Below the pieces are notes generated by a model. The model was not told where the DNA came from and made no database searches. It saw only the letters and a program-made list of their open reading frames with translations. Below, piece after piece: positions 16,152 through 29,697 of a stretch of 64,000 bases of DNA. The stretch is from NCBI GenBank assembly GCA_963665295.1, contig OY762209.1:2784001-2848000 (forward strand), in the 5' to 3' direction. The position numbers and the translations under genes are program-made. Positions within the stretch are counted from its first letter, which is position 1. The number at the start of each line of letters is the position of its first letter. The DNA is from Syntrophorhabdaceae bacterium. GTDB taxonomy: Bacteria; Desulfobacterota; Syntrophorhabdia; Syntrophorhabdales; Syntrophorhabdaceae.

Positions 16152-17576
16152 ATGGCAAGGGTCCTGATCATAGACGATGATGAGATAATATCGGAGATGC
16201 TTTCCGACATGGTCTCTATCTGGGGACATGACGCGGCCACCGCCGGAACCCTCGAGGAAGGACTGGAGAAGGTCCGGTCGGACTCCTACGACGTGGTATT
16301 TCTCGACATAAGACTGCCGGACGGCAGCGGTCTCGACATATTGCCGAAGATCCGGGAAGCATCATCATCCCCGGAGATCATTATTATCACAGGTTTCGGT
16401 GATCCTGATGGGGCGGAACTCGCCATAAAGAACGGGGCCTGGGACTACATCGAGAAGTCTTCTTCCATAAAGGAAATGGAACTGCCCTTTGTACGGGCCA
16501 TCCAATACCGACAGGAAAAACGGTCGAAGATGCCCCCGGTGTTGTTGAAACGTGAAAACATTATAGGAAGCTCGCCCCAGATGCAGACTTGCTTTGATTT
16601 TCTGGCGCAAACGGCCAACAGTGAAGCCAACGTGCTTGTTTTCGGAGAGACCGGCACGGGCAAGGAACTTTTCGCAAGGGCTATTCACGACAATAGTTCG
16701 AGAGCGCACAAGAACTTCGTTGTCGTGGATTGCGCATCCTTCCCTGAGACCCTTGTGGAGAGCATAATTTTCGGCCACGAAAAGGGTGCGTTTACCGGGG
16801 CGGACAAGGCGCAAGACGGCTTGATCAAACAGGCCCACGGAGGAACCCTTTTCCTCGACGAAATCGGGGAGCTCCCCCTCTCGATCCAGAAGACCTTCCT
16901 CAGGGTACTTCAGGAACACCGGTTTCGCCCGGTGGGGGGCAAACACGAGATCGAAAGCAATTTCAGACTCATCTCAGCGACAAACAAGGACCTTGCCCTC
17001 ATGGTTTCAAAGGGCAGGTTCCGTGAAGACCTTTTGTTCCGCCTGCGCACCCTCAGTGTCGAATTGCCTCCCCTAAGGACCCACCAGGGGGACATCAAAG
17101 AACTGGCCATCTATTACGTAACAAGGATCTGTGAGCGTTACGGGGTCGGGATAAAGGGTTTTTCCTCGGATTTCCTGGAGGCCCTCATGGCCTACGAATG
17201 GCCGGGGAACGTGCGGGAACTGGTGAATGCCCTTGAAAGGGCAATATCCGCGGCGTTCCATGAGCCCACCCTGTTCCCCAAACACCTTCCCACGGAAATA
17301 AGGGTTCAGGTGGCGCGGGCCTCGGTATTCAAGGAGAACCCGGGACCGGGGAGCGAAGTGAAACCCGTCGATTCCCGTCCGACCCTTGAACCGTTAAGGG
17401 AATACAGGGACGCAGCCATTGCGAAGGCGGAGAAATCCTATCTGGAAGACTTGATACGCCTGACCGCGGGCAATATTAAGGAAGCCTGCCACATGTCGGG
17501 CCTATCGAGGCCACGTTTGTACGCCCTCCTGAAGCAGTATAATATCCGGACAGTAAGACACGAAATAGAAGAGTAG
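16152..17576 (+). CDS. Sigma54-dependent response regulator (NtrC/AtoC family)
   Basis: Receiver, [30 protein letters not shown], Fis HTH. Confidence 0.96.
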
Positions 17577-17649
17577 AGATAATCCCGGCATTCTCCCCCC
17601 TTTTTTCGGCCGGAGAGATGGCGGATCGTCTCATAGGGAAAGACAGAAA

Positions 17650-17688
17650 GTCTTGTGTAACGAGAATTATGTCTTGCATAACAAGACA
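17650..17688. promoter_or_regulatory. Tandem UAS-like sites (GTCTT..AAGAC)
   Basis: GTCTTGTGTAACGAGAA-TTAT-GTCTTGCATAACAAGACA; similar to 44364-44403. Confidence 0.65.
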
Positions 17689-17782
17689 GTGAGCCTTTTC
17701 CTTTATACCATGGATGCCGGGGTTTCCCTGAAAAATGCGCCCTGAAGGCCCTCTCACGGGGTCCTGTTCCCTCCCTTATCTC

Positions 17783-17798
17783 TGGCACATATATTGAA
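17783..17798 (+). promoter_or_regulatory. Sigma54 -24/-12 promoter
   Basis: TGGCAC-N5-TTGAA, 94 nt downstream of the UAS. Confidence 0.65.
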
Positions 17799-17820
17799 TG
17801 TTCTTCCGTGGAACGAAGAC

Positions 17821-18267
17821 ATGTTGACCAAAACCCCTAATGGACTCTGGAGAGAGGAACGGCCCGGCGCAGGAAACAGACTCAACGTCATCCTTTATGT
17901 GCGGGACTCGGATATTCTGAAAGCGATTGAGGAAGCGTTTTCCAGAGTGATACCCGCTGTCCGGATAGAGTTCTGCCGGACTATAGAGACATTTGTGGAG
18001 AGTCTCCGGAAGCTTGCCTACGACCGCACTGTCGCGGTGATTGTAGTTACCGACAGGAGCGACCTCGAGAATATCACTTCACTCCAGCGGTTCTTGCTGA
18101 CCTTACGCACCATACTTGTGCTCCCCGACGGCGATGACCAGATGGTCGCCATGGCGCATAGTCTGAGACCGCGGTTTGTCAGCCACCATGAGGACGATTT
18201 TACGAATGTAGTTGCCGTTTTGAATAAAATGCTCGCTGAACTCAATTCAAAACCACGTATGGAATAA
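17821..18267 (+). CDS. Hypothetical protein, degenerate receiver-like fold
   Basis: Alternating beta/alpha pattern (VILYVRDSD..AVIVV..ILVL..RPRFV); start moved past the sigma54 -12 box. Confidence 0.55.
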   Translation: MLTKTPNGLWREERPGAGNRLNVILYVRDSDILKAIEEAFSRVIPAVRIEFCRTIETFVESLRKLAYDRTVAVIVVTDRSDLENITSLQRFLLTLRTILVLPDGDDQMVAMAHSLRPRFVSHHEDDFTNVVAVLNKMLAELNSKPRME

Positions 18268-18280
18268 GGAGGTTTCGATT

Positions 18281-18562
18281 ATGGATGCTCTTCATCAGGG
18301 ACAAAACGTGCCGGAAACGCAGTGGGTTGTCGATCGAAACAATGGTATGCCGATTCTGGACCGGTCCTCTTACGGTCAGCCGGATGTAAAGCTCATGGAT
18401 AACCTGCATACCATCCTGACCCTTTCCCTGGTATTTTTTGAGAAAATTGTGAAACCCTTCGACGACCGGACCGGTATGTCTCCCTTCAATGAAGACGAAG
18501 GCGACTGCGGGGAGCGTTCGTGGGGCCCATTGAGCAACGCGGAAAGGATCCGGATTACGTGA
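18281..18562 (+). CDS. Small hypothetical protein
   Basis: TAAGGAGG RBS; 13 nt after the upstream gene. Confidence 0.55.
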   Translation: MDALHQGQNVPETQWVVDRNNGMPILDRSSYGQPDVKLMDNLHTILTLSLVFFEKIVKPFDDRTGMSPFNEDEGDCGERSWGPLSNAERIRIT

Positions 18563-18702
18563 GGAAGGCCCTCCTGGCGCCTTTAGCCCGGAGTTGGGGG
18601 AGTCCCGTGGGCCACAGGTTGCCATGTGCGGCCGGGATACCCGGGGAGACGGACCCTGCTTTTTTGATTACACAAGTCGGACAAAACTGAGAAGGAGGAA
18701 GG

Positions 18703-19656
18703 ATGAGCGCACCTCAGACGAGCGAAACCCAATGGAAATACCCCGGAGAAGCAATAGGAAACCGGCTCAGCCGGTGGAGCGGGCGGGAGTTGACGGAGGG
18801 ACGGCAGGGAGGGCTCAAGATGGTTGGCGCGTACACGCCTGCCAATCTTCATCATGTAAAGGAAATGGTGGGTGTAGTTGAATTTGCTTCGGACGTGGCG
18901 CACCACTTCAATAACATTCTGGCTATAGTATCGGGTTACGGAGGCCTCCTGAAGGTAAAGATGTCCAAAGACGACCCCTCCCTGACCTACGTGGAGAAGA
19001 TGCTCGCCTCGTCGCAGAAGGCGCAGGATGTGATCCGCAGCCTTTTCGTGTTTTCGGGAAACGAGCGGATCATATTAAGAGAAATGGACCTGAACAAGGT
19101 AATCAAGCGAGCTACGAGGTTCCTTGAGTCCGGTGAATCCGGGCCGGAGAAGAAGGTGGAAATGAGGCTGGAGCTCCACGAGGGCGAGTTGATCGTTATG
19201 GCCGATGTTGTCCGGATGGAGGAAGTTCTTGCAAATCTGATAGGTAACGCACGGGACGCCATGCCTAGTGGCGGGATAGTGACTTTGCGCACCGAACCGA
19301 TGACTTTGGGCCACGCCGGGAGCGGCGGATCCCGCTTCGCGAGCATCACCGTGACGGATACGGGTTCGGGCATGGATAAAGAAACCAGGGAAAGGATGTT
19401 CGATCCCTTTTTCACCACAAAAGGGCCTGGGAGGAATATCGGACTCGGCCTTTCCAAGGTGTATGGCATCGTGAAGGCCCATTCAGGTGAAATGACCGTT
19501 GAAAGCGCGCCGGGAGAAGGGACTTCGGTAAGGATCCGCGTACCCCTCGTACGAAGCGAGGCCAGGCTCATGGACCCCATACCGCTTCCTGACTCGATTG
19601 TGGCGGGAAGGCTGCACCTTTGCAGCTCATATATAGGTGAGACCATATGTGAGTGA
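18703..19656 (+). CDS. Sensor-less histidine kinase (HisKA + HATPase_c)
   Basis: VAHHFNN H-box, NLIGNARDAM, DTGSGM, FDPFFTTK, GLGLS. Confidence 0.85.
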   Translation: MSAPQTSETQWKYPGEAIGNRLSRWSGRELTEGRQGGLKMVGAYTPANLHHVKEMVGVVEFASDVAHHFNNILAIVSGYGGLLKVKMSKDDPSLTYVEKMLASSQKAQDVIRSLFVFSGNERIILREMDLNKVIKRATRFLESGESGPEKKVEMRLELHEGELIVMADVVRMEEVLANLIGNARDAMPSGGIVTLRTEPMTLGHAGSGGSRFASITVTDTGSGMDKETRERMFDPFFTTKGPGRNIGLGLSKVYGIVKAHSGEMTVESAPGEGTSVRIRVPLVRSEARLMDPIPLPDSIVAGRLHLCSSYIGETICE

Positions 19657-19806: not shown

Positions 19807-20151
19807 ATGGTAAAGATCAAAAGGGTTTACGAAAAGCCAAGCGAAGATGACGGCCGGAGGTTCCTGGTTGACAGGCTCTGGCCGCGAGGTCTCACAAAAG
19901 AAGAACTGGGTGCGGTTTTGTGGTTGAAAGACCTCGCTCCAAGCAATGAACTGCGCAGGCAGTTCCATCACGAGCCTGAAAGATGGGAAGAATTCCGAAA
20001 AAGGTATCTTGAGGAATTGGAAGGCAGGAAAGAGCTTGTAAGAAGGATCATTGAGGAAGCAGGGTCCGGGAATGTGACCCTCCTCTATGCGGCAAAGGAT
20101 ACATCCCACAATAATGCAGTGGTGCTCAAGGAGTTTATTTCCTATCTTTGA
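19807..20151 (+). CDS. DUF488 (YeaO-like) protein
   Basis: KIKRVYE..DDGRRFLVDRLWPRG..APSNELR..HNNAVVL. Confidence 0.9.
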   Translation: MVKIKRVYEKPSEDDGRRFLVDRLWPRGLTKEELGAVLWLKDLAPSNELRRQFHHEPERWEEFRKRYLEELEGRKELVRRIIEEAGSGNVTLLYAAKDTSHNNAVVLKEFISYL

Positions 20152-21656
20152 TTGCGCCGCTGTTTCAGCAATCCCGTCGTAATAGCCCCTGCGAGCAGAA
20201 GAAGCATGACGAACACGAAATAGTCGCCGTGACGGACGTAGAATGTGGTCGTGTCCTTGAGGGCGAAGCCGCCGGTCAGAACCGCGGGCTGGAAGATGGC
20301 AGTCTTGCCGCGGACACGCCCCGAAGAGTCTATTATGGCGCTTATTCCCGTATTTGCCGAGCGGAGCACCCACCTGTCAGACTCTATGGCCCTGAATATG
20401 TAAAAGGCGAAGTGTTGATACGGGGCCGAGGTCCGGTCATACCAGGCGTCATTGGTGATGTTGACAAGGACCTGGGCACCTCTTCTCACCTCTTCGTTCG
20501 TAATGCCGGGGAATACGCCTTCATAGCAGATCAGCACGCCTATGTTGCCCATGCCGGTCCGTATGGGCGCAGGCGACTGTCCGGGAAAGAACTCTCCGAT
20601 CTGGACGCTCAGCCTTTCAAGGAAGGGGAGATACGCGCGAAGCGGAGTGTATTCGCCGAAGGGGACGAGATGGGTCTTGCTGTATCCTCCCTCTTCATGG
20701 CCGTGAGGGCCGAGTACATATGCCGAGTTCCTGAATTTGCCCATAGTGTCTCGCGATATGGTGCCGAAAAGGAGGTAGGACCCTGTGAGAGACGGCAGGG
20801 CCCGGATATACCGGCGTACATGTTCCTCCTGGTCGAAGATCAGGGGCATCGCTGTTTCGGGCCACACTACGAGGTTGGAACCCTTCGTCGAGTCCATGGT
20901 GGCCTGATAATAGGTATTGATGATCTTCAATTTGAAGGCTTCGTCCCATTTCATGTCCTGCGTGATATTCCCCTGTACGATAGCGGCCTTCAACGGGCCC
21001 GGTTCCAGGGTACGGAGCTTTATAAATCCATATGTCAGGGAGAGGGCCAGCAATGCGCATATGATGCCTGCATACACGAAAGAGACCCTTTTCCTTTTTA
21101 GGAGCATGAATAACAAACCGTTTACCGCTACTATGAGAAAGGAGATGAAATAAGCGCCTGTAAACGATATGACCTGGATGAAAGGAAGAAAGTTGTATTG
21201 GGAGTGAGAGAGGTAGCTCCACGGAAACCCTGTGAGGAGTGTGCCCCGCAGATATTCGACCAACACCCAGACAGGGGGCGCCGTGATGTAGAAAGGAAGG
21301 GAAAACCTCTTTTCGCAATACGAGACTACAAGGGTGAAACACCCCGTATAGACGGCCATATAGACGACGAGGAGCATAAGTATGAGGAAACTGAGATATA
21401 TGTTGATGCCCCCGTATTTATGCACCGCCACGATGACCCAGTAAAGAAGTCCCAGGAACGAAACGACCCCTGTCACCCATCCCCTGAAGAAGCTTTCCCG
21501 GAGCCCCGCCTTTTCCAGGGAGTAGAAAAGGGGGATGAAGGCAAAGAAGGCAAGAAAAGAGAGGGATACGGGCGGCTGGATAAGGACGAGCAGGACGCCG
21601 GAAAGGATGGCCGGGCTAAAGGGTGATTTCTTTATAGATTGGATGGGATCTGACAT
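20142..21656 (-). CDS. lnt: Apolipoprotein N-acyltransferase
   Basis: TGFPW, WPETA, KTHLVPFGEY, ICYE, NITNDAWY, RSANTGIS. Confidence 0.96.
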   Translation of the reverse strand: MSDPIQSIKKSPFSPAILSGVLLVLIQPPVSLSFLAFFAFIPLFYSLEKAGLRESFFRGWVTGVVSFLGLLYWVIVAVHKYGGINIYLSFLILMLLVVYMAVYTGCFTLVVSYCEKRFSLPFYITAPPVWVLVEYLRGTLLTGFPWSYLSHSQYNFLPFIQVISFTGAYFISFLIVAVNGLLFMLLKRKRVSFVYAGIICALLALSLTYGFIKLRTLEPGPLKAAIVQGNITQDMKWDEAFKLKIINTYYQATMDSTKGSNLVVWPETAMPLIFDQEEHVRRYIRALPSLTGSYLLFGTISRDTMGKFRNSAYVLGPHGHEEGGYSKTHLVPFGEYTPLRAYLPFLERLSVQIGEFFPGQSPAPIRTGMGNIGVLICYEGVFPGITNEEVRRGAQVLVNITNDAWYDRTSAPYQHFAFYIFRAIESDRWVLRSANTGISAIIDSSGRVRGKTAIFQPAVLTGGFALKDTTTFYVRHGDYFVFVMLLLLAGAITTGLLKQRRNQR

Positions 21657-22110
21657 AACCGAGGAGCTTCTTTTCCCTGTACCTCATCCTCCTGCTTTCA
21701 TTACCGCCAAGTTCATGGTCGAAACCGAGTATGTGAAGCAAGCCATGGATAATCAGGGCGAACACCCTCTCGTAGAATGGGATGTCCGCGGATTCGGCCT
21801 CTTCCCGGGCTCTCTCGAGAGAGATTACAATATCACCAATCATTTCACAAGGAAATTCCTGCCTTCCCGCAGACTGGGCGGCGCCTTCTTCGGGTTCGGG
21901 CTCAAGGTACGAGAAGGATATGACATTTGTAGGCCAATCCCTGTCGAAGAACTTCTTGTTCAGCTTCCGTATCTGCCTGTTGTCCACAAAGAGGATGCTG
22001 ACGTCCCTACCCGGTAGCTTTAAAGACGTGAGCAGGTTTTCCGTTATCTTTCGTATTCGCCTTTTGTCCACCTTCAACGATTTTTGGGAATCTTTTATCA
22101 GAGCTGTCAT
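21616..22110 (-). CDS. ybeY: rRNA maturation endoribonuclease
   Basis: PTNVISF, GDIVIS, HGLLHILGFDH. Confidence 0.95.
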   Translation of the reverse strand: MTALIKDSQKSLKVDKRRIRKITENLLTSLKLPGRDVSILFVDNRQIRKLNKKFFDRDWPTNVISFSYLEPEPEEGAAQSAGRQEFPCEMIGDIVISLERAREEAESADIPFYERVFALIIHGLLHILGFDHELGGNESRRMRYREKKLLGYVRSHPIYKEITL

Positions 22111-23722
22111 GGGTTATCCTTTCAGGGTATTGTATCCTGTGGTGGAATGTGCCTATCAGGATCGCGATGAAACTTTTCCGTATGGCATGAAGGTCCTTGA
22201 GGGTGAGTTCACATTCGTCGAGTTGTCCGTCAAGGAAGATGCGCTCTATGATGTTCTGCACGTGGGTCTCAATCCGTTTCGGCGTGGGCTCGTCGAGTAT
22301 TCTTGAGGCTGCCTCCACCGCGTCGGCAAGCATCAATATACCTGCTTCCTTCGTCTGAGGTTTCGGTCCTGCGTACCGGAACTCCTTTTCATCCACGAGG
22401 AAAAGCTTCGGGTCTTCCAGTTCCTTTGCCCTGTTGAAAAAATAACTGACAAGGCTTGTCCCGTGGTGCTGTTGTATCATGTCGGTGATCTTTTGCCCGA
22501 GTTTGTGTCTTTCCGCAAGCTCCATTCCTTCTTTCACGTGGGAGAGGATGATGAGGGCGCTCATATGGGGGGTAAGGGATTTGTGGGCGTCTTCAAAATC
22601 GGTCCTGTTTTCGATGAAATAATGGGGCATCTTGAGTTTCCCTATGTCGTGGTAGTACGCGGACACCCGTGTGAGGAGAGGGTGGGCCCCGATACTCTCC
22701 GCAGCCGCCTTGCCGAGGTTGCCCACGATAATGCTGTGGTGATATGTGCCCGGAGCTTCGAGCATCATGGCTTCAAGGAGAGGGTGCTCCAGGTTCGCGA
22801 GTTCGAGGAGTTTTATGTCCGTCGTGTAGCCAAAGAGATATTCTATGACGGGGAGGAGCCCGAGGGCGATGAAGCTGCTGCCTATGCCGGAGAGGAGAAT
22901 GAGGGCTATCTTGGCCGGGATATTGCCTGAAGGTTCGCCGAGCAGCACATGGTAGAGGACCATTATGAAACCCATGAAGAAGGCGGTGAAGATTCCTGCT
23001 TTGAGTATGGTATTCCTGTCCTCGCATTTGCCGGAGAAATGAGAGGCGAGGATATTCGCGAGAAAGGTATAGAGAAATACCTGCAGGCTGTTCTGGAAGG
23101 CAAACCCCATGGCGATGCCGAAAACAAGGGAGAAGGTGATCGCTGCCTCCGAAAAGAGAACGACCCGCATAATGATCCCGAACAGAAAGATAGGCACCAC
23201 GTAAAAGAGGTCCGCAATGTTATCCCGGGCAAAGTGACCGAAAATAAGGAAAGAACTCTTTACGAAGGCGACGGTGAACACGGTGAGGACAGCGCCGAAA
23301 ATAAGGTCTTTTCGGGACAGGGAGAATTTTTTGATATTCTTCTCTCCGTACTGGTAAATCACCGTTATGGACAAAAAGAGGATCGCGAAGATGGAAAGGA
23401 ACTTCCGTATATCGAGGGCCTCCCCTTTTTCGATCTGTTTCAGGACGGAAAGTATCCGCAGTTGGGAGTCGCTTATCCGTTCCCCCTCCCTCACGATGAT
23501 TTCCCCCTTCTTGATTACCGTGTCGGTGCCGGGGACACGGAACTGCTGGGGAGATTTTACATTTTCTCTTGCAATGTCGCCATCCTGGTACTCGGTGATG
23601 ACGAAGGGATACGTGACGTGGATGATCAGAGTGAGAGACAAGGCAAAGAGCAGGAGAATCAGCACCCTCTTCCAGTCGGGATACGACGGAGGTTTGTCCT
23701 TCTTGTCCTTAACGCCCTGCAT
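22007..23722 (-). CDS. 7TM-HD membrane phosphohydrolase (PgpH-like)
   Basis: Multiple TM helices, APGTYHHS, YYHDIGK, QHHGT, MLADAVEA; phoH-ybeY context. Confidence 0.9.
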   Translation of the reverse strand: MQGVKDKKDKPPSYPDWKRVLILLLFALSLTLIIHVTYPFVITEYQDGDIARENVKSPQQFRVPGTDTVIKKGEIIVREGERISDSQLRILSVLKQIEKGEALDIRKFLSIFAILFLSITVIYQYGEKNIKKFSLSRKDLIFGAVLTVFTVAFVKSSFLIFGHFARDNIADLFYVVPIFLFGIIMRVVLFSEAAITFSLVFGIAMGFAFQNSLQVFLYTFLANILASHFSGKCEDRNTILKAGIFTAFFMGFIMVLYHVLLGEPSGNIPAKIALILLSGIGSSFIALGLLPVIEYLFGYTTDIKLLELANLEHPLLEAMMLEAPGTYHHSIIVGNLGKAAAESIGAHPLLTRVSAYYHDIGKLKMPHYFIENRTDFEDAHKSLTPHMSALIILSHVKEGMELAERHKLGQKITDMIQQHHGTSLVSYFFNRAKELEDPKLFLVDEKEFRYAGPKPQTKEAGILMLADAVEAASRILDEPTPKRIETHVQNIIERIFLDGQLDECELTLKDLHAIRKSFIAILIGTFHHRIQYPERITHDSSDKRFPKIVEGGQKANTKDNGKPAHVFKATG

Positions 23723-24707
23723 TTTTCTTTTCCCCCTCAGTCTGCGCCTTCTTCTCGTAGGCCTTGATAATCTTTTGAACGAGGGGATGTCTGACTATGT
23801 CCGTCCCCGTAAAATTGACGAACTTGATGCCCTTTATCCCTTTGAGGACAGTCTGAATCTCTACGAGGCCGCTCGATCTCTTGTCGGGGAGGTCGATCTG
23901 GGTGACATCGCCCGTAATAACCGTGCGTGACGAGAAACCGAGCCTGGTAAGGAACATCTTCATCTGCTCCGACGCGGTGTTCTGGGCTTCGTCCAATATG
24001 ACGAATGCGTCGTTCAAGGTCCTGCCGCGCATAAAGGCCAGGGGTGCTATCTCGATAACGCCTTTCTCCAGCAGGCGGGAGGCCCTTTCCATATCGACCA
24101 TGTCGTAGAGCGCGTCATAGAGCGGTCTCAGGTAAGGGTTTACCTTGTCATAGAGGGTCCCGGGCAGGTAGCCCAGCTTCTCTCCTGCCTCGATGGCGGG
24201 CCTTGTGAGGATGATTCGCGATACCTCTTTCCTGTAATATGATGAGAGGGCCATGGCCATGGCAAGGTATGTCTTGCCGGTCCCCGCAGGGCCGATGCCG
24301 ATTACCATGTCATGGGTCCTGATGGCCTCCAGGTATGCTTTCTGGTTGCTTGTCTTCGGGGTTATCAGCTTTTTGGAGGGAAATATATAGACCTGGTCCT
24401 TGTAAAGCTCATCTGCGGCGCCGTGGGTGTGGGCGATATAACGCACGGCATGGTCTATATCGGCGGGATTCACGATAAAGCCCTTTTTGATGATGCCCTG
24501 GAGTTCGCCGATAACCTTGTTCGTATTTTCGACTTCCTTCTTCTCTCCGATTATGGTGAGGTGGTTCCCTCTTATGCTTGTCTTGACATTGAAGTACTTC
24601 TTCAGATACTTAATGTTTTCGTCCCGGGGACCAAATAGGTTGCGTGCTACGTTTGTATCATCAAAGGACAGTTTGATGAGCCCTTCTTCATTCCTTCTTT
24701 CTTCCAA
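23709..24707 (-). CDS. phoH: PhoH family ATPase (PhoH/YbeZ)
   Basis: GPAGTGKTYLA, RPAIEAGEKLGYLPG, MRGRTL, LDEAQN. Confidence 0.95.
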   Translation of the reverse strand: MEERRNEEGLIKLSFDDTNVARNLFGPRDENIKYLKKYFNVKTSIRGNHLTIIGEKKEVENTNKVIGELQGIIKKGFIVNPADIDHAVRYIAHTHGAADELYKDQVYIFPSKKLITPKTSNQKAYLEAIRTHDMVIGIGPAGTGKTYLAMAMALSSYYRKEVSRIILTRPAIEAGEKLGYLPGTLYDKVNPYLRPLYDALYDMVDMERASRLLEKGVIEIAPLAFMRGRTLNDAFVILDEAQNTASEQMKMFLTRLGFSSRTVITGDVTQIDLPDKRSSGLVEIQTVLKGIKGIKFVNFTGTDIVRHPLVQKIIKAYEKKAQTEGEKKNAGR

Positions 24708-24856
24708 TAAAAGCCTTGCCGACCTCCTTAGGGGGGATTTTCATTCTGGTAGGATATTATATCATAATATTCAGTTTTGCAAGGGTTATCCCATAGCGTG
24801 GCCCTGGCGCGGGAAACGATTGTAAAACCAAATTATTTCAAGTAGACTATTAACAC

Positions 24857-26101
24857 ATGCGTAAAGTCCTTATCATAGACGATGAAAAGAACATACTCGA
24901 AAGCCTTTCCTCGATCCTCGGTGACGAAGGTTTTCAGGTACTGAAGGCGATCGACGGCCACGAGGGGCTTTCCATATTCGAAAAGGAGAAGCCCGGAGTG
25001 GTGCTTCTCGATATATGGATGCCCGAGATGGACGGACTGCAGGTGTTGAAGTTGATCCGCGAGAAGGACAAAGACGCCGTCGTGATCGTAATGTCGGGAC
25101 ATGGGACCATCTCCACGGCGGTTGAGGCGGTAAAGATGGGCGCCTATGATTTCCTCGAAAAACCTCTTTCCATAGACAAGGTGCTGGAAGTGATAGTGAG
25201 AAGCCTGGCCGGGGAAGCCCAGGAGAAGGGCCCGGTGGAGGATGTGAAAATCCAGATATCGAAGGGTGACAATATCCGCACTCAAAAGACCATAGGTAAG
25301 AGCATCGTCGTCTATGGCATGGGTCTCTTTTCCGGGGTAAAGACGGGTATGATACTGCTTCCCATGCCTGAAGACTCAGGCATCGTCTTTGAACATATCC
25401 CCGATGGCGAGCGTATTCCTGCCTATATCGATTACGTGTACTCCGTGGGCTACTCTTCATCCGTTAAAGGGAAGACCTGCATCGTGAGGACGATCGAGCA
25501 TCTGCTCGCCACGTTCCACATGTACGGTATTACCAATCTTCTCGTAAAGGTGAGCGAGGAGATACCCATTTTCGATGGTTCCGCAATAGAGATATGCAGC
25601 AAGATAGAGGAAGCGGGTGTGGTGGAGCAAAAAGAGGGGGTTGAACCTTTGAGGATTCGGGAAAAGGTGGTCCTCTCAAGCCTGAACGACTCCCAATACC
25701 TCTTTATAGAACCCTCCGACGTGTTCGAGATAGATTACGTCCTGGAACACCCGAAGCCGGTAGGCAGCCAGAGATACCATTTCAAGGGCGGCAAGGCCGC
25801 GTTCCTGAAGGAGGTTGCTCCTGCGAGAACCTTCGGTTCCATCAGGGATTTCGAGCGTCTTGCGAAAATAGGGCAGGGCGGCAGGATCGACAACGTGATG
25901 ACCAATGTGATAATCCTGAGCGATGAAGGAGTGGTAAACACCACGCTACGGTTTCCGGATGAGTTTGTCCGGCACAAGATACTTGATATCATCGGAGACA
26001 CATACCTCCTCAACCGGCCCATTATCGGAAAGATATCGGCCAGGCAGACCGGGCACATCGAAAATATCGCCCTCATGAAGGAACTCAAGAAGCGCTTCTA
26101 G
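24857..26101 (+). CDS. lpxC: Receiver domain fused to UDP-3-O-acyl-GlcNAc deacetylase (REC-LpxC)
   Basis: N-terminal REC (IDDE, LLDIWMP, MSGHG, LEKP); LpxC motifs QKTI, TIEHLL, EIPIFDGSA, APARTFG, DEFVRHKILDIIGD, GHIEN. Confidence 0.92.
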   Translation: MRKVLIIDDEKNILESLSSILGDEGFQVLKAIDGHEGLSIFEKEKPGVVLLDIWMPEMDGLQVLKLIREKDKDAVVIVMSGHGTISTAVEAVKMGAYDFLEKPLSIDKVLEVIVRSLAGEAQEKGPVEDVKIQISKGDNIRTQKTIGKSIVVYGMGLFSGVKTGMILLPMPEDSGIVFEHIPDGERIPAYIDYVYSVGYSSSVKGKTCIVRTIEHLLATFHMYGITNLLVKVSEEIPIFDGSAIEICSKIEEAGVVEQKEGVEPLRIREKVVLSSLNDSQYLFIEPSDVFEIDYVLEHPKPVGSQRYHFKGGKAAFLKEVAPARTFGSIRDFERLAKIGQGGRIDNVMTNVIILSDEGVVNTTLRFPDEFVRHKILDIIGDTYLLNRPIIGKISARQTGHIENIALMKELKKRF

Positions 26102-26730: not shown

Positions 26731-29406
26731 TTATTTCAGGGCCAGCCGCACCTGGGTTGTCTCTCCGTCCTCTTCGCGTTCCATGGTGAACCCCAATTTG
26801 AGGACTATTCGAAGCATCTTGTCGTTTTCCGAGAGCACGGTCCCGTGGATTCCCTCAAGACCCTGGTCCTGGGCCACCCCTATGAGCACGTCCACCAGTT
26901 TGTAACCGAGCCCTTTCCCTTGAAAATTATCATGGACGAGGACGGCGTACTCGGCCTCCCGAAAATCAGGATCGACGATAAGCCTTCCGATGGCCACGAT
27001 CCTTTTCTGCTCGCCTTCCCGGACCTCCGCCACAATAGCCATCTCCCTCTCGTAGTCTATGTTGCAGAACCGGACAAGCATTTCGTGAGAGATATCGCTT
27101 ATCATGGAGAAGAATCTGGTACGCATCGTCTCCGGTTTGAGGGTGGCGAGCATCTCATGCTCCAGGTGTTCATCCTCGGGCTTGATGGGGCGCAGGGTCA
27201 TCTGAGTCCCATCGGGTAATTCGTAGGTCGTTACATACCGGGTAGGGTAGGGCGTTATTACGAGATGGGGGTATGGGGATTCATAGTCCATGGACTCCCT
27301 GTCGATCACTATCCTCGCATCGAGTGAGTACACCCCGCCTTTTGATATGGCAATGGGGTTTATGTCCATTTCCGCGATTTCCGGAAAGTCCACTATGAGG
27401 TTGGAAAAACTTACCAATATCTGTTCAAGCCGTTTCATGTCGGCAGGCGGTCTCCCTCTGAAGCCCTTAAGCATCTTGTATACTTCGGTTTCCTCCATCA
27501 GCCTTCGCGCAAGGGTCTGGTTGAGCGGCGGGAGACCTATGGCCACGTCCTTAAAGACCTCCGTTCCTATGCCGCCCATGCCGAAGAGGATCACCGTTCC
27601 GAAATCCTTATCCTTTTTCGCGCCGAGGATGACTTCGTAGTCTATCTTCGGAATCATCTTCTGGACGGATATCCCTTTTATCGAGGCTTCCGGCGCGTTC
27701 AACTCCACGCTGGTCAGCAGGTGGGCATATTCAGACTTCAGTTGGGCATCCGATTCTATCCCGACCTTCACTCCCCCCACATCACTCTTATGAGATATGT
27801 CGTGGGAAACCACCTTGAGGACCACGGGGTACCCTATTCTTCTCGCCGCAGCCAGCGCGGTTTCCACATCCCGGACCATGTACGGATCGGTTCTCGGTAT
27901 GTCGTAGTTTACCAGAAAATCCTTCGATTCCCCCTCGGTCAGAAGGGTCCTCCCTTCCCTTGCGATTCGCCGGAGAAGAACTTTCAGATGGTTCTTCGAT
28001 GGCGCCTGTTTCACGGTAAGCTCCGTGGGTGTTTCGTAAAGGAGGGTAAGGTTCCTATGGTACCGGTACATGTAGAAGTACGTTTTTACCGCGTCTTCCG
28101 GGGTGTCGTAGGTGGGAATGCTGTTTTGAAGGAACAGGTCTCTCGCTTTCTGCACCGTTTCTCCACCCACGAAGGCGGTGATTACGGGCTTCCGGCAGGT
28201 ACGGGCTATTTCCACGATAGACCCGGCAAGGGTCTCGGCATTGAGGATGGCCTGAGGTCCGTAGATCGCGAGAAGCCCATCAACCTCACGGTCGCGAAGA
28301 CATATCTTGATAGCCGATGCATAGCGTTCGCTGTCCGCGTCTCCCAACACGTCCACGGGGTTTCCCTTGCTCCAGAAGGGTGGAAGAATGGCGTTCAACT
28401 CGCCGATGGTTTCATCGGAAAGCTTTGAAAGCTCTCCATGGAGGTCCATCACCGTATCGGTAGCCATGACGCCGAAACCTCCGGCGTTGGTGACAATGGC
28501 CAGCTTGCGTCCTTTGGGGAGATAATTCGAGTCGAGAACCGAGGCGGCATTGAAGAGATCGGAGAATTCCCTGACACGGATTACACCCGCCCGTTTAAAC
28601 GCGGCGTCATAAACCTGATCGTCGCCCGCCAGGGCGCCCGTGTGGGAAAGGGCCGCCTTTGCGCTCTCCGGAAATCTGCCCGGTTTTACGATAACTATGG
28701 GTTTGGTTCTTGCAAAGCCCCGGGCGGCGCTCATAAACTTTTTTGCATTTCCCACCCCTTCCATGTAGAGCATGATGCTCCTCGTATAACGGTCGCTTCC
28801 GAGGAAGTCGATGAGATCACCGAAATCCATATCGATCATCGACCCGAGGGAGGCGAACATGCTGAAGCCCACGTGGGCCTTTATGGCCCAGTCTAGTATG
28901 GCCCCTCCAAGGGCGCCGCTCTGCGAGATAAATGCGATATTTCCCGGGTCCGGGTTGGCCTTGAGGAAGGACGCGTTCAACCCCGTGTGGGGTCGTATCA
29001 CGCCTATGCAGTTTGGCCCCACAACCCGGATCCCGTATTCCTTTCTTACCGCGAGTATTTTCTCTTCGAGAAGCAGGCCCTCTTTCCCCACCTCCTTGAA
29101 GCCCGACGAGACAATGACGGCCCCTTGTACATCGGCCCGGGCGCATTCCTCGACAAGTTCAGGCACGGTGTTCGCGGGAGTGGCAATAACCGCGAGGTCA
29201 ATGGGTTCCGATATGTCCGCCACACCGGGGTAGCACCTGAGCCCCATAATGCTCTCCTTGCCGGGGTTCACAGGGAATATCCTTCGCTTCCCCGGGGCCG
29301 TAAGGTTTTCGAGGATTGCCCGCCCTACGGACCCTTCCTCCTCGCTCGCGCCGATGAGGGCCACGGTAGCCGGATTGAACATGGCGTTGATGCTGTGTGA
29401 TTTCAT
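26731..29406 (-). CDS. Acetate-CoA ligase-like + GNAT protein lysine acetyltransferase (Pat/PatZ type)
   Basis: GPNCIG, SQSGALG, SHTGALAG, HKSDVGGV, C-terminal GNAT (FQGKGLG); GGAGA RBS. Confidence 0.92.
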   Translation of the reverse strand: MKSHSINAMFNPATVALIGASEEEGSVGRAILENLTAPGKRRIFPVNPGKESIMGLRCYPGVADISEPIDLAVIATPANTVPELVEECARADVQGAVIVSSGFKEVGKEGLLLEEKILAVRKEYGIRVVGPNCIGVIRPHTGLNASFLKANPDPGNIAFISQSGALGGAILDWAIKAHVGFSMFASLGSMIDMDFGDLIDFLGSDRYTRSIMLYMEGVGNAKKFMSAARGFARTKPIVIVKPGRFPESAKAALSHTGALAGDDQVYDAAFKRAGVIRVREFSDLFNAASVLDSNYLPKGRKLAIVTNAGGFGVMATDTVMDLHGELSKLSDETIGELNAILPPFWSKGNPVDVLGDADSERYASAIKICLRDREVDGLLAIYGPQAILNAETLAGSIVEIARTCRKPVITAFVGGETVQKARDLFLQNSIPTYDTPEDAVKTYFYMYRYHRNLTLLYETPTELTVKQAPSKNHLKVLLRRIAREGRTLLTEGESKDFLVNYDIPRTDPYMVRDVETALAAARRIGYPVVLKVVSHDISHKSDVGGVKVGIESDAQLKSEYAHLLTSVELNAPEASIKGISVQKMIPKIDYEVILGAKKDKDFGTVILFGMGGIGTEVFKDVAIGLPPLNQTLARRLMEETEVYKMLKGFRGRPPADMKRLEQILVSFSNLIVDFPEIAEMDINPIAISKGGVYSLDARIVIDRESMDYESPYPHLVITPYPTRYVTTYELPDGTQMTLRPIKPEDEHLEHEMLATLKPETMRTRFFSMISDISHEMLVRFCNIDYEREMAIVAEVREGEQKRIVAIGRLIVDPDFREAEYAVLVHDNFQGKGLGYKLVDVLIGVAQDQGLEGIHGTVLSENDKMLRIVLKLGFTMEREEDGETTQVRLALK

Positions 29407-29697
29407 CTCATTTATTCTCCTCTTCCCACTTCCCTCAAAACCCCGGGGACAGGGCCGGCGGCATGGACGCAACAAGGCGACCCCTCCCGAACAGGTTATT
29501 TGCCGTTAAGTGCGTTGAATTTCATGACGCCCATCTCATGGCCCGCCGTGCGCGACGGGTACAGGCAGGATGTCTACAGCTCGAATGGAAAAGATGGGCC
29601 ATGGGACGCCCGTGCCGGTGTTCATCGTCATTATCTCCGCCCGAATAATTCCGATGCCGATAGGGAAACTGTATGCCGGGATTATGCTGTTTCCCGG

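Follow-up and report, generated by a model that had tools for sequence, protein, structure and literature searches.

What is the receiver domain of a response regulator doing on LpxC, the enzyme that commits the cell to outer-membrane lipid A synthesis? The question is raised by a gene at positions 24857-26101 (forward strand) of the window, i.e., the whole stretch of 64,000 nucleotides from a Syntrophorhabdaceae bacterium that was analyzed here. The gene is a single frame of 414 amino acids without any internal stop. Its N-terminal part is an NtrX-type receiver domain (24857-25204, forward strand; aa 1-116), which matches Response_reg PF00072 with residues 4-113 (E 1.3e-30; Pfam). A linker of about aa 117-140 (25205-25276, forward strand), with low pLDDT at residues 120-129, leads over to an LpxC deacetylase domain with a short C-terminus (25277-26098, forward strand; aa 141-414). 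This domain matches LpxC PF03331 with residues 143-411 (E 3.2e-69, 233.9 bits, profile positions 1-267 of 268; Pfam). The fusion also passes the cut-off of the lpxC model TIGR00325 (192.2 bits vs. 187.25), and its score for the LpxC-FabZ profile NF009667 is far under the cut-off (169.8 vs. 465). On the forward strand, the receiver part encodes the acidic pair D8/D9 (24878-24883), the phospho-acceptor D52 within LLDIWMP (25010-25012), the switch residue S80 within MSGHG (25094-25096) and K102 within LEKP (25160-25162), which is followed by P103. The enzyme part, on the same strand, encodes E214/H215 (25496-25501), H373-K374-D377 (25973-25987) and G399-H400 (H400 at 26054-26056). E214, H215, H373, K374, D377, D381 and H400 line up with zinc ligands and catalytic residues of the LpxC from P. 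aeruginosa. The preliminary description of this locus had proposed an uninterrupted 414-aa frame joining a receiver to a complete LpxC with phosphorylation, zinc and catalytic motifs; frame, Pfam and TIGR00325 support this, and all motifs it had named are present.

The LpxC domain is predicted to be the deacetylase of a lipid A pathway, and lpxA, lpxB, lpxK and a waaA-type gene were all found in the same genome. A PF03331 search of this 5.5-Mb single-contig genome (rated 98% complete) yielded the fusion as the only match. It is the sole lpxC of the genome, a point which the preliminary description had left to be checked. One position deviates from the common LpxC pattern. In place of the histidine that most LpxC carry in the N-terminal GLH motif (H19 of the P. 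aeruginosa enzyme), the fusion has F158 (25328-25330, forward strand). A phenylalanine is found there in 20 of 73 rows of the same class, and free LpxC keep the histidine in 37 of 38 cases. The GLH histidine lies outside the zinc-ligand set, and its replacement by F158 may lower or retune the activity of LpxC.

That the fusion is an assembly chimera or a lineage-specific accident is practically out of the question, because it is conserved across relatives. Contigs from all four public runs bridge the linker with zero differing letters; those from two of the runs cover the stretch from end to end, and the assembly of the window may derive from them. A single low-depth contig in one of the four runs jumps from 25057 to 25689 and thereby omits part of the gene. 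It ends at GATC and GACTC sites, from which we infer a proximity-ligation artefact. A chimeric join, which the preliminary description had named as what could overturn its reading, is thus not borne out by the contigs derived from reads.

The preliminary description had also suggested a search for a conserved architecture, and such an architecture exists. Both domains lie in one frame in 37 of the 41 genomes of the same order (36 complete, one truncated where its contig stops), including the cultured Syntrophorhabdus aromaticivorans; of the other four genomes, two contain partial matches at contig ends and two are incomplete (80-84%) and without a match. In an even sample of the phylum, 38 of 161 genomes carry the fusion. 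For 30 of the 32 phylum-sample fusions outside the order the frame was confirmed on retrieved sequence, and the other two were taken from the search result. Identity to the fusion of the window amounts to 66-83% in Syntrophorhabdus/Syntrophorhabdaceae and to 45-49% in Binatia, and two Bdellovibrionota-labelled genomes are also among the named fusion relatives. The counted fusion genomes are kin, so that these counts are not independent. Among 101 sampled genomes from the phylum to which genome G200 (Oligoflexia-labelled) belongs, a search run with no positive control gave zero matches at E 1e-45; that the two fusions at loci L104 and L106 are atypical for this phylum is the most that this sample shows. 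The copy number of lpxC, determined with the Pfam model in five genomes, was one in four of them. The fifth, G070 (loci L153 and L154), contains both a divergent REC-LpxC and a free lpxC, the latter of which keeps a sigma54 motif and precedes ntrY. No ntrX was found in G070, which is possibly a case of a transferred fusion that displaced ntrX.

Where did the receiver come from? In a family profile search its top match was NtrX. It shares 43-58% identity with the receivers of sigma54-type NtrX proteins elsewhere and at best 40% with the closest other receiver in its own genome. A tree of only 122 columns placed the receivers of 29 fusions and 33 NtrX proteins on one side of a branch (SH-aLRT 86) and 25 further receivers encoded by the genome on the other. 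The NtrX-like character of the receiver, as given in the preliminary description, is in agreement with both results, and sequence comparison places the origin of the fusion receiver in deltaproteobacterial NtrX. A search with an intact NtrX matched 112 of the 123 phylum-sample genomes without a fusion, at E 1e-125 or better. A separate NtrX at orthologue level was absent from all 38 fusion genomes of this sample. Three of them yielded hits at about 1e-126, with 44-48% identity, which is the paralogue level and resembles second hits elsewhere. The lack of any orthologue-level NtrX in the 38 fusion genomes indicates that the fusion replaces NtrX, this exclusion being a pattern among related genomes and not a statistical test. 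As Pfam found neither an AAA+ domain with GAFTGA nor a Fis-type HTH in the fusion of the window, the protein is NtrX-derived, but not an NtrX.

The relatives form a series from a separate lpxC-ntrY-ntrX cluster over REC-decayed AAA-HTH-LpxC and REC-HTH-LpxC to REC-LpxC. In ten long fusions (684-795 aa), receiver and LpxC are separated by an AAA+ domain like that of sigma54 activators. It shares 26-37% identity with NtrX, compared to 57-70% among the intact NtrX proteins of the phylum, and none of the ten has GAFTGA. The segment at the linker site comprises 287-344 residues in these ten proteins and the linker 20-344 residues across the family; the short linker in the window sits where the long relatives hold the decayed AAA+ domain and the HTH. 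Among the best 150 representatives at 50% identity, a census counted 46 REC-LpxC, 15 REC-AAA(-HTH)-LpxC and 2 REC-HTH-LpxC proteins as well as 6 AAA-bearing fragments, and GAFTGA was absent from all 21 AAA-bearing representatives. In one NtrX (L242, genome G098) GAFTGA is kept and both Walker A and Walker B are altered, possibly a separate decay of the ATPase.

In a quick tree of the LpxC domain, 53 fused proteins lie on one side of a branch and 38 free ones on the other (SH-aLRT 99). After the representatives were added, the 63 fused rows grouped again, with five receiver-less rows inside; within the fused clade of these quick trees the backbone is weak (SH-aLRT 81-95). Four of the five receiver-less rows look like fragments or sequencing errors. 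The fifth, P0192, a protein encountered on five contigs (the longest with 35.8 kb), may be a true loss of the receiver and is a candidate for a secondary fission, which suggests that the receiver may be dispensable. At two places in the tree long and shortened fusions are sister groups with a support of 100, implying repeated loss of the AAA+ domain. The data are consistent with a single origin of the fusion in a tree that is rooted by free LpxC only. Simple read-through was considered as its origin and rejected: in unfused clusters lpxC is located 5′ of ntrY-ntrX, and it lies directly 5′ of ntrY in 29 of 85 phylum-sample genomes with listed positions for both genes. Given this order, the genes had to be rearranged for the fusion to arise, and ntrX could have come to lie beside lpxC if the lpxC-ntrY-ntrX cluster was duplicated in tandem.

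If the receiver is still phosphorylated, a kinase should have been kept with it. The preliminary description had noted the lack of an adjacent kinase, and indeed no NtrY-type kinase adjoins the gene; an orphan NtrY-type kinase is encoded about 2 Mb away (G000:746479-748611), with NtrY_N, HAMP, PAS, HisKA (HEIKNPLTP) and HATPase_c domains. It scored 609 bits with an NtrY profile, the runner-up 170 bits, and its NtrY-type H-box HEIKNPLTP is the only one among the 33 H-boxes listed for the genome. Downstream of it lies an smpB-like gene, recognized by eye. NtrY is kept in all 38 fusion genomes of the phylum sample (one match each) and in 39 of the 41 genomes of the order. It is located immediately 5′ of the fusion at 29 of 31 Binatia-type loci, as counted with a profile built from such loci themselves. 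With the kinase of the window's own genome as query, an NtrY-family gene was found directly 5′ of the fusion at 35 distinct loci and also directly 5′ of intact NtrX at 34 loci, with an identical consensus of the H-box helix. At 49 loci with a detached NtrY no receiver was found downstream within flanks of 1.5-3 kb, which were very short in two cases. Adjacency and co-retention point to NtrY as the partner of the fusion receiver, and it is highly probable, judging from these gene patterns, that NtrY phosphorylates the receiver at D52. The window itself encodes, at 16152-19656 (forward strand), a response regulator of the sigma54 type, a short histidine kinase of 317 aa without an obvious sensor region and a small ORF resembling a receiver. 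Kinase and regulator were considered as partners and rejected, the former for not ranking within the top 12 in the search with the NtrY profile, the latter for a receiver that is just 37% identical.

What NtrY and NtrX may have done before the fusion is suggested by work on Desulfovibrio, here taken from the consulted sections of the papers. In Desulfovibrio vulgaris, DVU2934 carries the name ntrX, its cognate kinase is DVU2931 and lpxC is the single target that it bound (PMC3333781), and DVU2934 has GAFTGA (PMC4641369). In a kinase mutant of D. alaskensis, lpxC alone was upregulated, with a sigma54 promoter (PMC4045070). In one genome that matched the NtrX query, the gene order is kinase, one further gene, REC-PAS-HD-GYP and ntrX, as in the operon described in these papers and in bioRxiv 2021.11.05.467447. 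It is name, size, architecture and operon layout, rather than a sequence comparison, that suggest the orthology of DVU2934. The DVU2931/DVU2934 system (Dde_3000/Dde_3003) resembles that of the fusion in its kinase and receiver family and in lpxC as the target step. However, the Desulfovibrio NtrX keeps AAA+ (GAFTGA) and HTH and activates a sigma54 promoter, whereas the fusion lacks both domains and has LpxC itself as output. In Rhodobacter sphaeroides, loss of NtrYX raised the lpxC transcript 8.8-fold, according to the sections consulted (PMC7240162). As described there, this system is alike in its NtrY-type kinase, NtrX-type receiver and envelope role; unlike REC-LpxC, its NtrX is a DNA-binding regulator without an enzyme fusion, and the effect on lpxC is indirect.

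The promoters fit with such a former connection. When the 350 nt in front of each gene were scanned for a sigma54 -24/-12 motif, 19 of 38 free lpxC genes had one, where shuffled sequence predicts 0.7, compared to one of 83 fusions (1.6 expected), those directly behind ntrY being left out. By these motif counts, the fusions have lost the sigma54 promoter motif of lpxC. In front of the gene in the window lies a candidate sigma70-type promoter (TTGTAA-17 nt-TAGACT; 24820-24848, forward strand), which ends 8 nt before the ATG. A sigma70-like pair ending 4-9 nt before the start was counted at 49 of 63 distinct same-class loci and at 16 of 58,015 background ATG/GTG sites, with a pattern drawn by eye from those same sequences; a generic promoter scanner did not list the copy at 24820-24848. 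No Shine-Dalgarno sequence precedes the ATG at 24857, and the transcript is probably leaderless. GTGT-N8-ACAC inverted repeats were seen 170-260 nt 5′ of free lpxC at loci L160, L217, L222, L243 and L249; they resemble the published DVU2934 site, a resemblance recorded with no control for chance. On the other side of the fusion promoter, genes for phoH - 7TM-HD - ybeY - lnt (20142-24707, reverse strand) run divergently, as the preliminary description had stated, although its gene list omitted the 7TM-HD gene. This group is a common neighbor in the fusion family, with no shown membership in the system. Elsewhere in the window, a protein of 914 aa (26731-29475, reverse strand) combines an NDP-forming-type acyl-CoA synthetase with a C-terminal GNAT acetyltransferase; we take it to be of the known Pat/PatZ-like kind.

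Does the receiver still have a function? Of 126 distinct fusions, 124 have every residue of the phosphorylation pocket and 119 have the whole catalytic set of LpxC; the remaining two and seven lack the N-terminal and C-terminal columns, respectively, mostly because of truncation. In 11 pairs, dN of the receiver was 0.007-0.11 at a dS of 0.04-3.4 and close to that of the LpxC domain, and dN of the linker exceeded that of either domain in 9 of the 11. Such values indicate that the receiver is under purifying selection, as is the LpxC domain. A receiver with a dN as low as that of the enzyme fits poorly with the idea that it is a passenger, or a phosphate sink for NtrY, left over from an accidental fusion which rescued the expression of lpxC, with LpxC being constitutively active. 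Joining the regulator would indeed release lpxC from needing its own activator, P0192 represents one receiver-less member inside the fused clade, and the decayed AAA+/HTH remnants which persist in many lineages imply that passengers can last. Yet 38 of 38 genomes retained receiver and NtrY through the decay and deletion of the AAA+ domain, and an output-less sink gives no reason for keeping the kinase. It is therefore hardly likely that the receiver is without an effect of its own.

The reading that we favor, with a rough probability of 0.5, is that the fusion is a response regulator with LpxC as its output, whose activity is switched allosterically by phosphorylation; a transcriptional NtrY-NtrX-sigma54 circuit would have collapsed into a post-translational one, with the receiver docking on an allosteric surface of LpxC. 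It builds on the observed architecture and its conservation, the replacement of NtrX, the retention of NtrY, the decayed intermediates and the loss of the sigma54 motif. In the ancestor, the membrane kinase NtrY would have acted on NtrX (REC-AAA+-HTH), and NtrX on lpxC from a sigma54 promoter. NtrX would have joined LpxC once, upon which the AAA+ domain would have lost its sigma54-activating motifs and been deleted several times, and the fusion gene would have passed to another promoter with NtrY being retained. In the genome of the window, the orphan NtrY would determine how far D52 is phosphorylated, and an intramolecular contact would let the receiver switch the deacetylase. Phosphorylation would more likely raise than lower the activity of LpxC, because phosphorylated ancestral NtrX appears to raise lpxC expression. 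That phosphorylation affects the output of LpxC in any way at all appears likely, as far as sequence can tell.

An effect on half-life instead of activity would be a different outcome of the same phosphorylation. The receiver, set by NtrY, might expose the enzyme to FtsH/LapB or Clp/Lon or hide it from them and so replace a C-terminal degron. Fused LpxC mostly end 16-25 residues (up to 36) past the last GH, the tail of free LpxC measures 23-63 residues past this point in 36 of 37 cases, and the fused enzymes lack the tail that carries the degron in E. coli (PMC11046580, sections consulted). Proteolysis is the chief control of LpxC in E. coli according to the parts of a recent review that were consulted (PMC13333357), and the presence of a LapA/LapB-like protein and three FtsH genes in the genome makes proteolytic control available here. 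The former (L260:301-1674; G000:1371879-1373252) has 457 aa; its N-terminal domain weakly resembles LapA and is joined to TPR repeats and a zinc ribbon of the LapB type, which makes it a possible LapA-LapB fusion. Nevertheless, a search of the genome for a YejM domain found none, and the fusion-specific positions lie within the LpxC domain, away from the termini. We consider control through half-life possible but rather unlikely.

These positions, conserved in fused but not in free LpxC, are S149, V151, T163, G164, H221, K231, Y383 and R387; position 115 of the receiver is R/K in fusions and N/H in NtrX. Such residues could belong to an interface or simply reflect common descent. AlphaFold2 modelled the fusion of the window with a pLDDT of 88.5 and a pTM of 0.88 and a relative with a 58-aa linker with a pTM of 0.81. 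As both pTM values exceed the 0.65-0.7 that would, by our own estimate, be expected for undocked domains, they are a weak hint that receiver and LpxC may be held in a fixed orientation. The model agrees with solved LpxC structures (rmsd about 2 Å, target TM 0.83-0.93), and no chain among solved structures spans receiver and LpxC together. A complex prediction for the separate receiver (1-119) and LpxC domain (138-414) scored 0.02, below the mark of 0.32, and carries no weight either way. A linker that ranges from 20 to 344 residues is as compatible with a loose tether as with a fixed interface. This freedom in length would suit a receiver that is a docking tag, bringing LpxC to the membrane protein NtrY with its HAMP and PAS domains, or a dimerizer, as receivers dimerize upon phosphorylation; in either case location would change and not turnover number. 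Kinase-receiver contacts are, however, usually transient, and simple tethering needs no full pocket, yet the pocket is invariant. Relocation or dimerization in place of an allosteric switch thus seems improbable.

Receivers in cis to a catalytic domain, as in CheB and PleD, are familiar. REC-LpxC is like CheB, PleD/WspR and RpfG-type HD-GYP proteins in this respect, but their outputs are signaling enzymes, whereas LpxC is an essential biosynthetic enzyme and, unlike theirs, the former transcriptional target of the regulator itself. While receiver-enzyme fusions are already known, an essential biosynthetic output that was the target of the regulator sets this one apart. LpxC-FabZ, known from Bacteroidetes, Chlorobi and Verrucomicrobia (PMC3087551, sections consulted), is likewise a two-domain LpxC protein, but its partner is a C-terminal metabolic enzyme and not an N-terminal signaling domain. 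The consulted sections of the same paper name only LpxC-FabZ among LpxC fusions, those of another list lpxC without comment (PMC2650404), and ten supplement files of a survey of two-component domains have no LpxC entry. A literature search for a REC-LpxC fusion or its context, with subscription papers mostly outside its range, found no description.

Direct control of LpxC by bound protein has precedents. In the sections consulted, LapB inhibits LpxC allosterically in E. coli (PDB 8V24; PMC11046580) and MurA stimulates it in P. aeruginosa (PMC13333357). As in the proposed switch, a bound protein sets LpxC activity in both cases; LapB and MurA, however, act in trans and without phosphorylation, whereas the candidate regulator of the fusion is covalently attached. 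The 2026 review (PMC13333357) treats the control of LpxC activity as an emerging paradigm and, in the parts consulted, names LapB and MurA as the sole direct regulators; in a word search of its accessible text, neither fusions nor two-component systems nor response regulators turned up. If the favored reading is true, the attached phospho-switch would be a third mode of direct LpxC control, and lipid A synthesis would have its first enzyme gated by phosphorylation. The fusion would also offer a single-polypeptide model of LpxC allostery, which would be relevant to the design of non-hydroxamate inhibitors.

The signal sensed by NtrY is debated, and the fusion would provide a direct biochemical readout for this kinase. 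In this family, control has probably moved from the lpxC gene to the LpxC enzyme itself. Decayed intermediates persist across several classes, and with such intermediates surviving, the shift from transcriptional to post-translational control becomes testable step by step.
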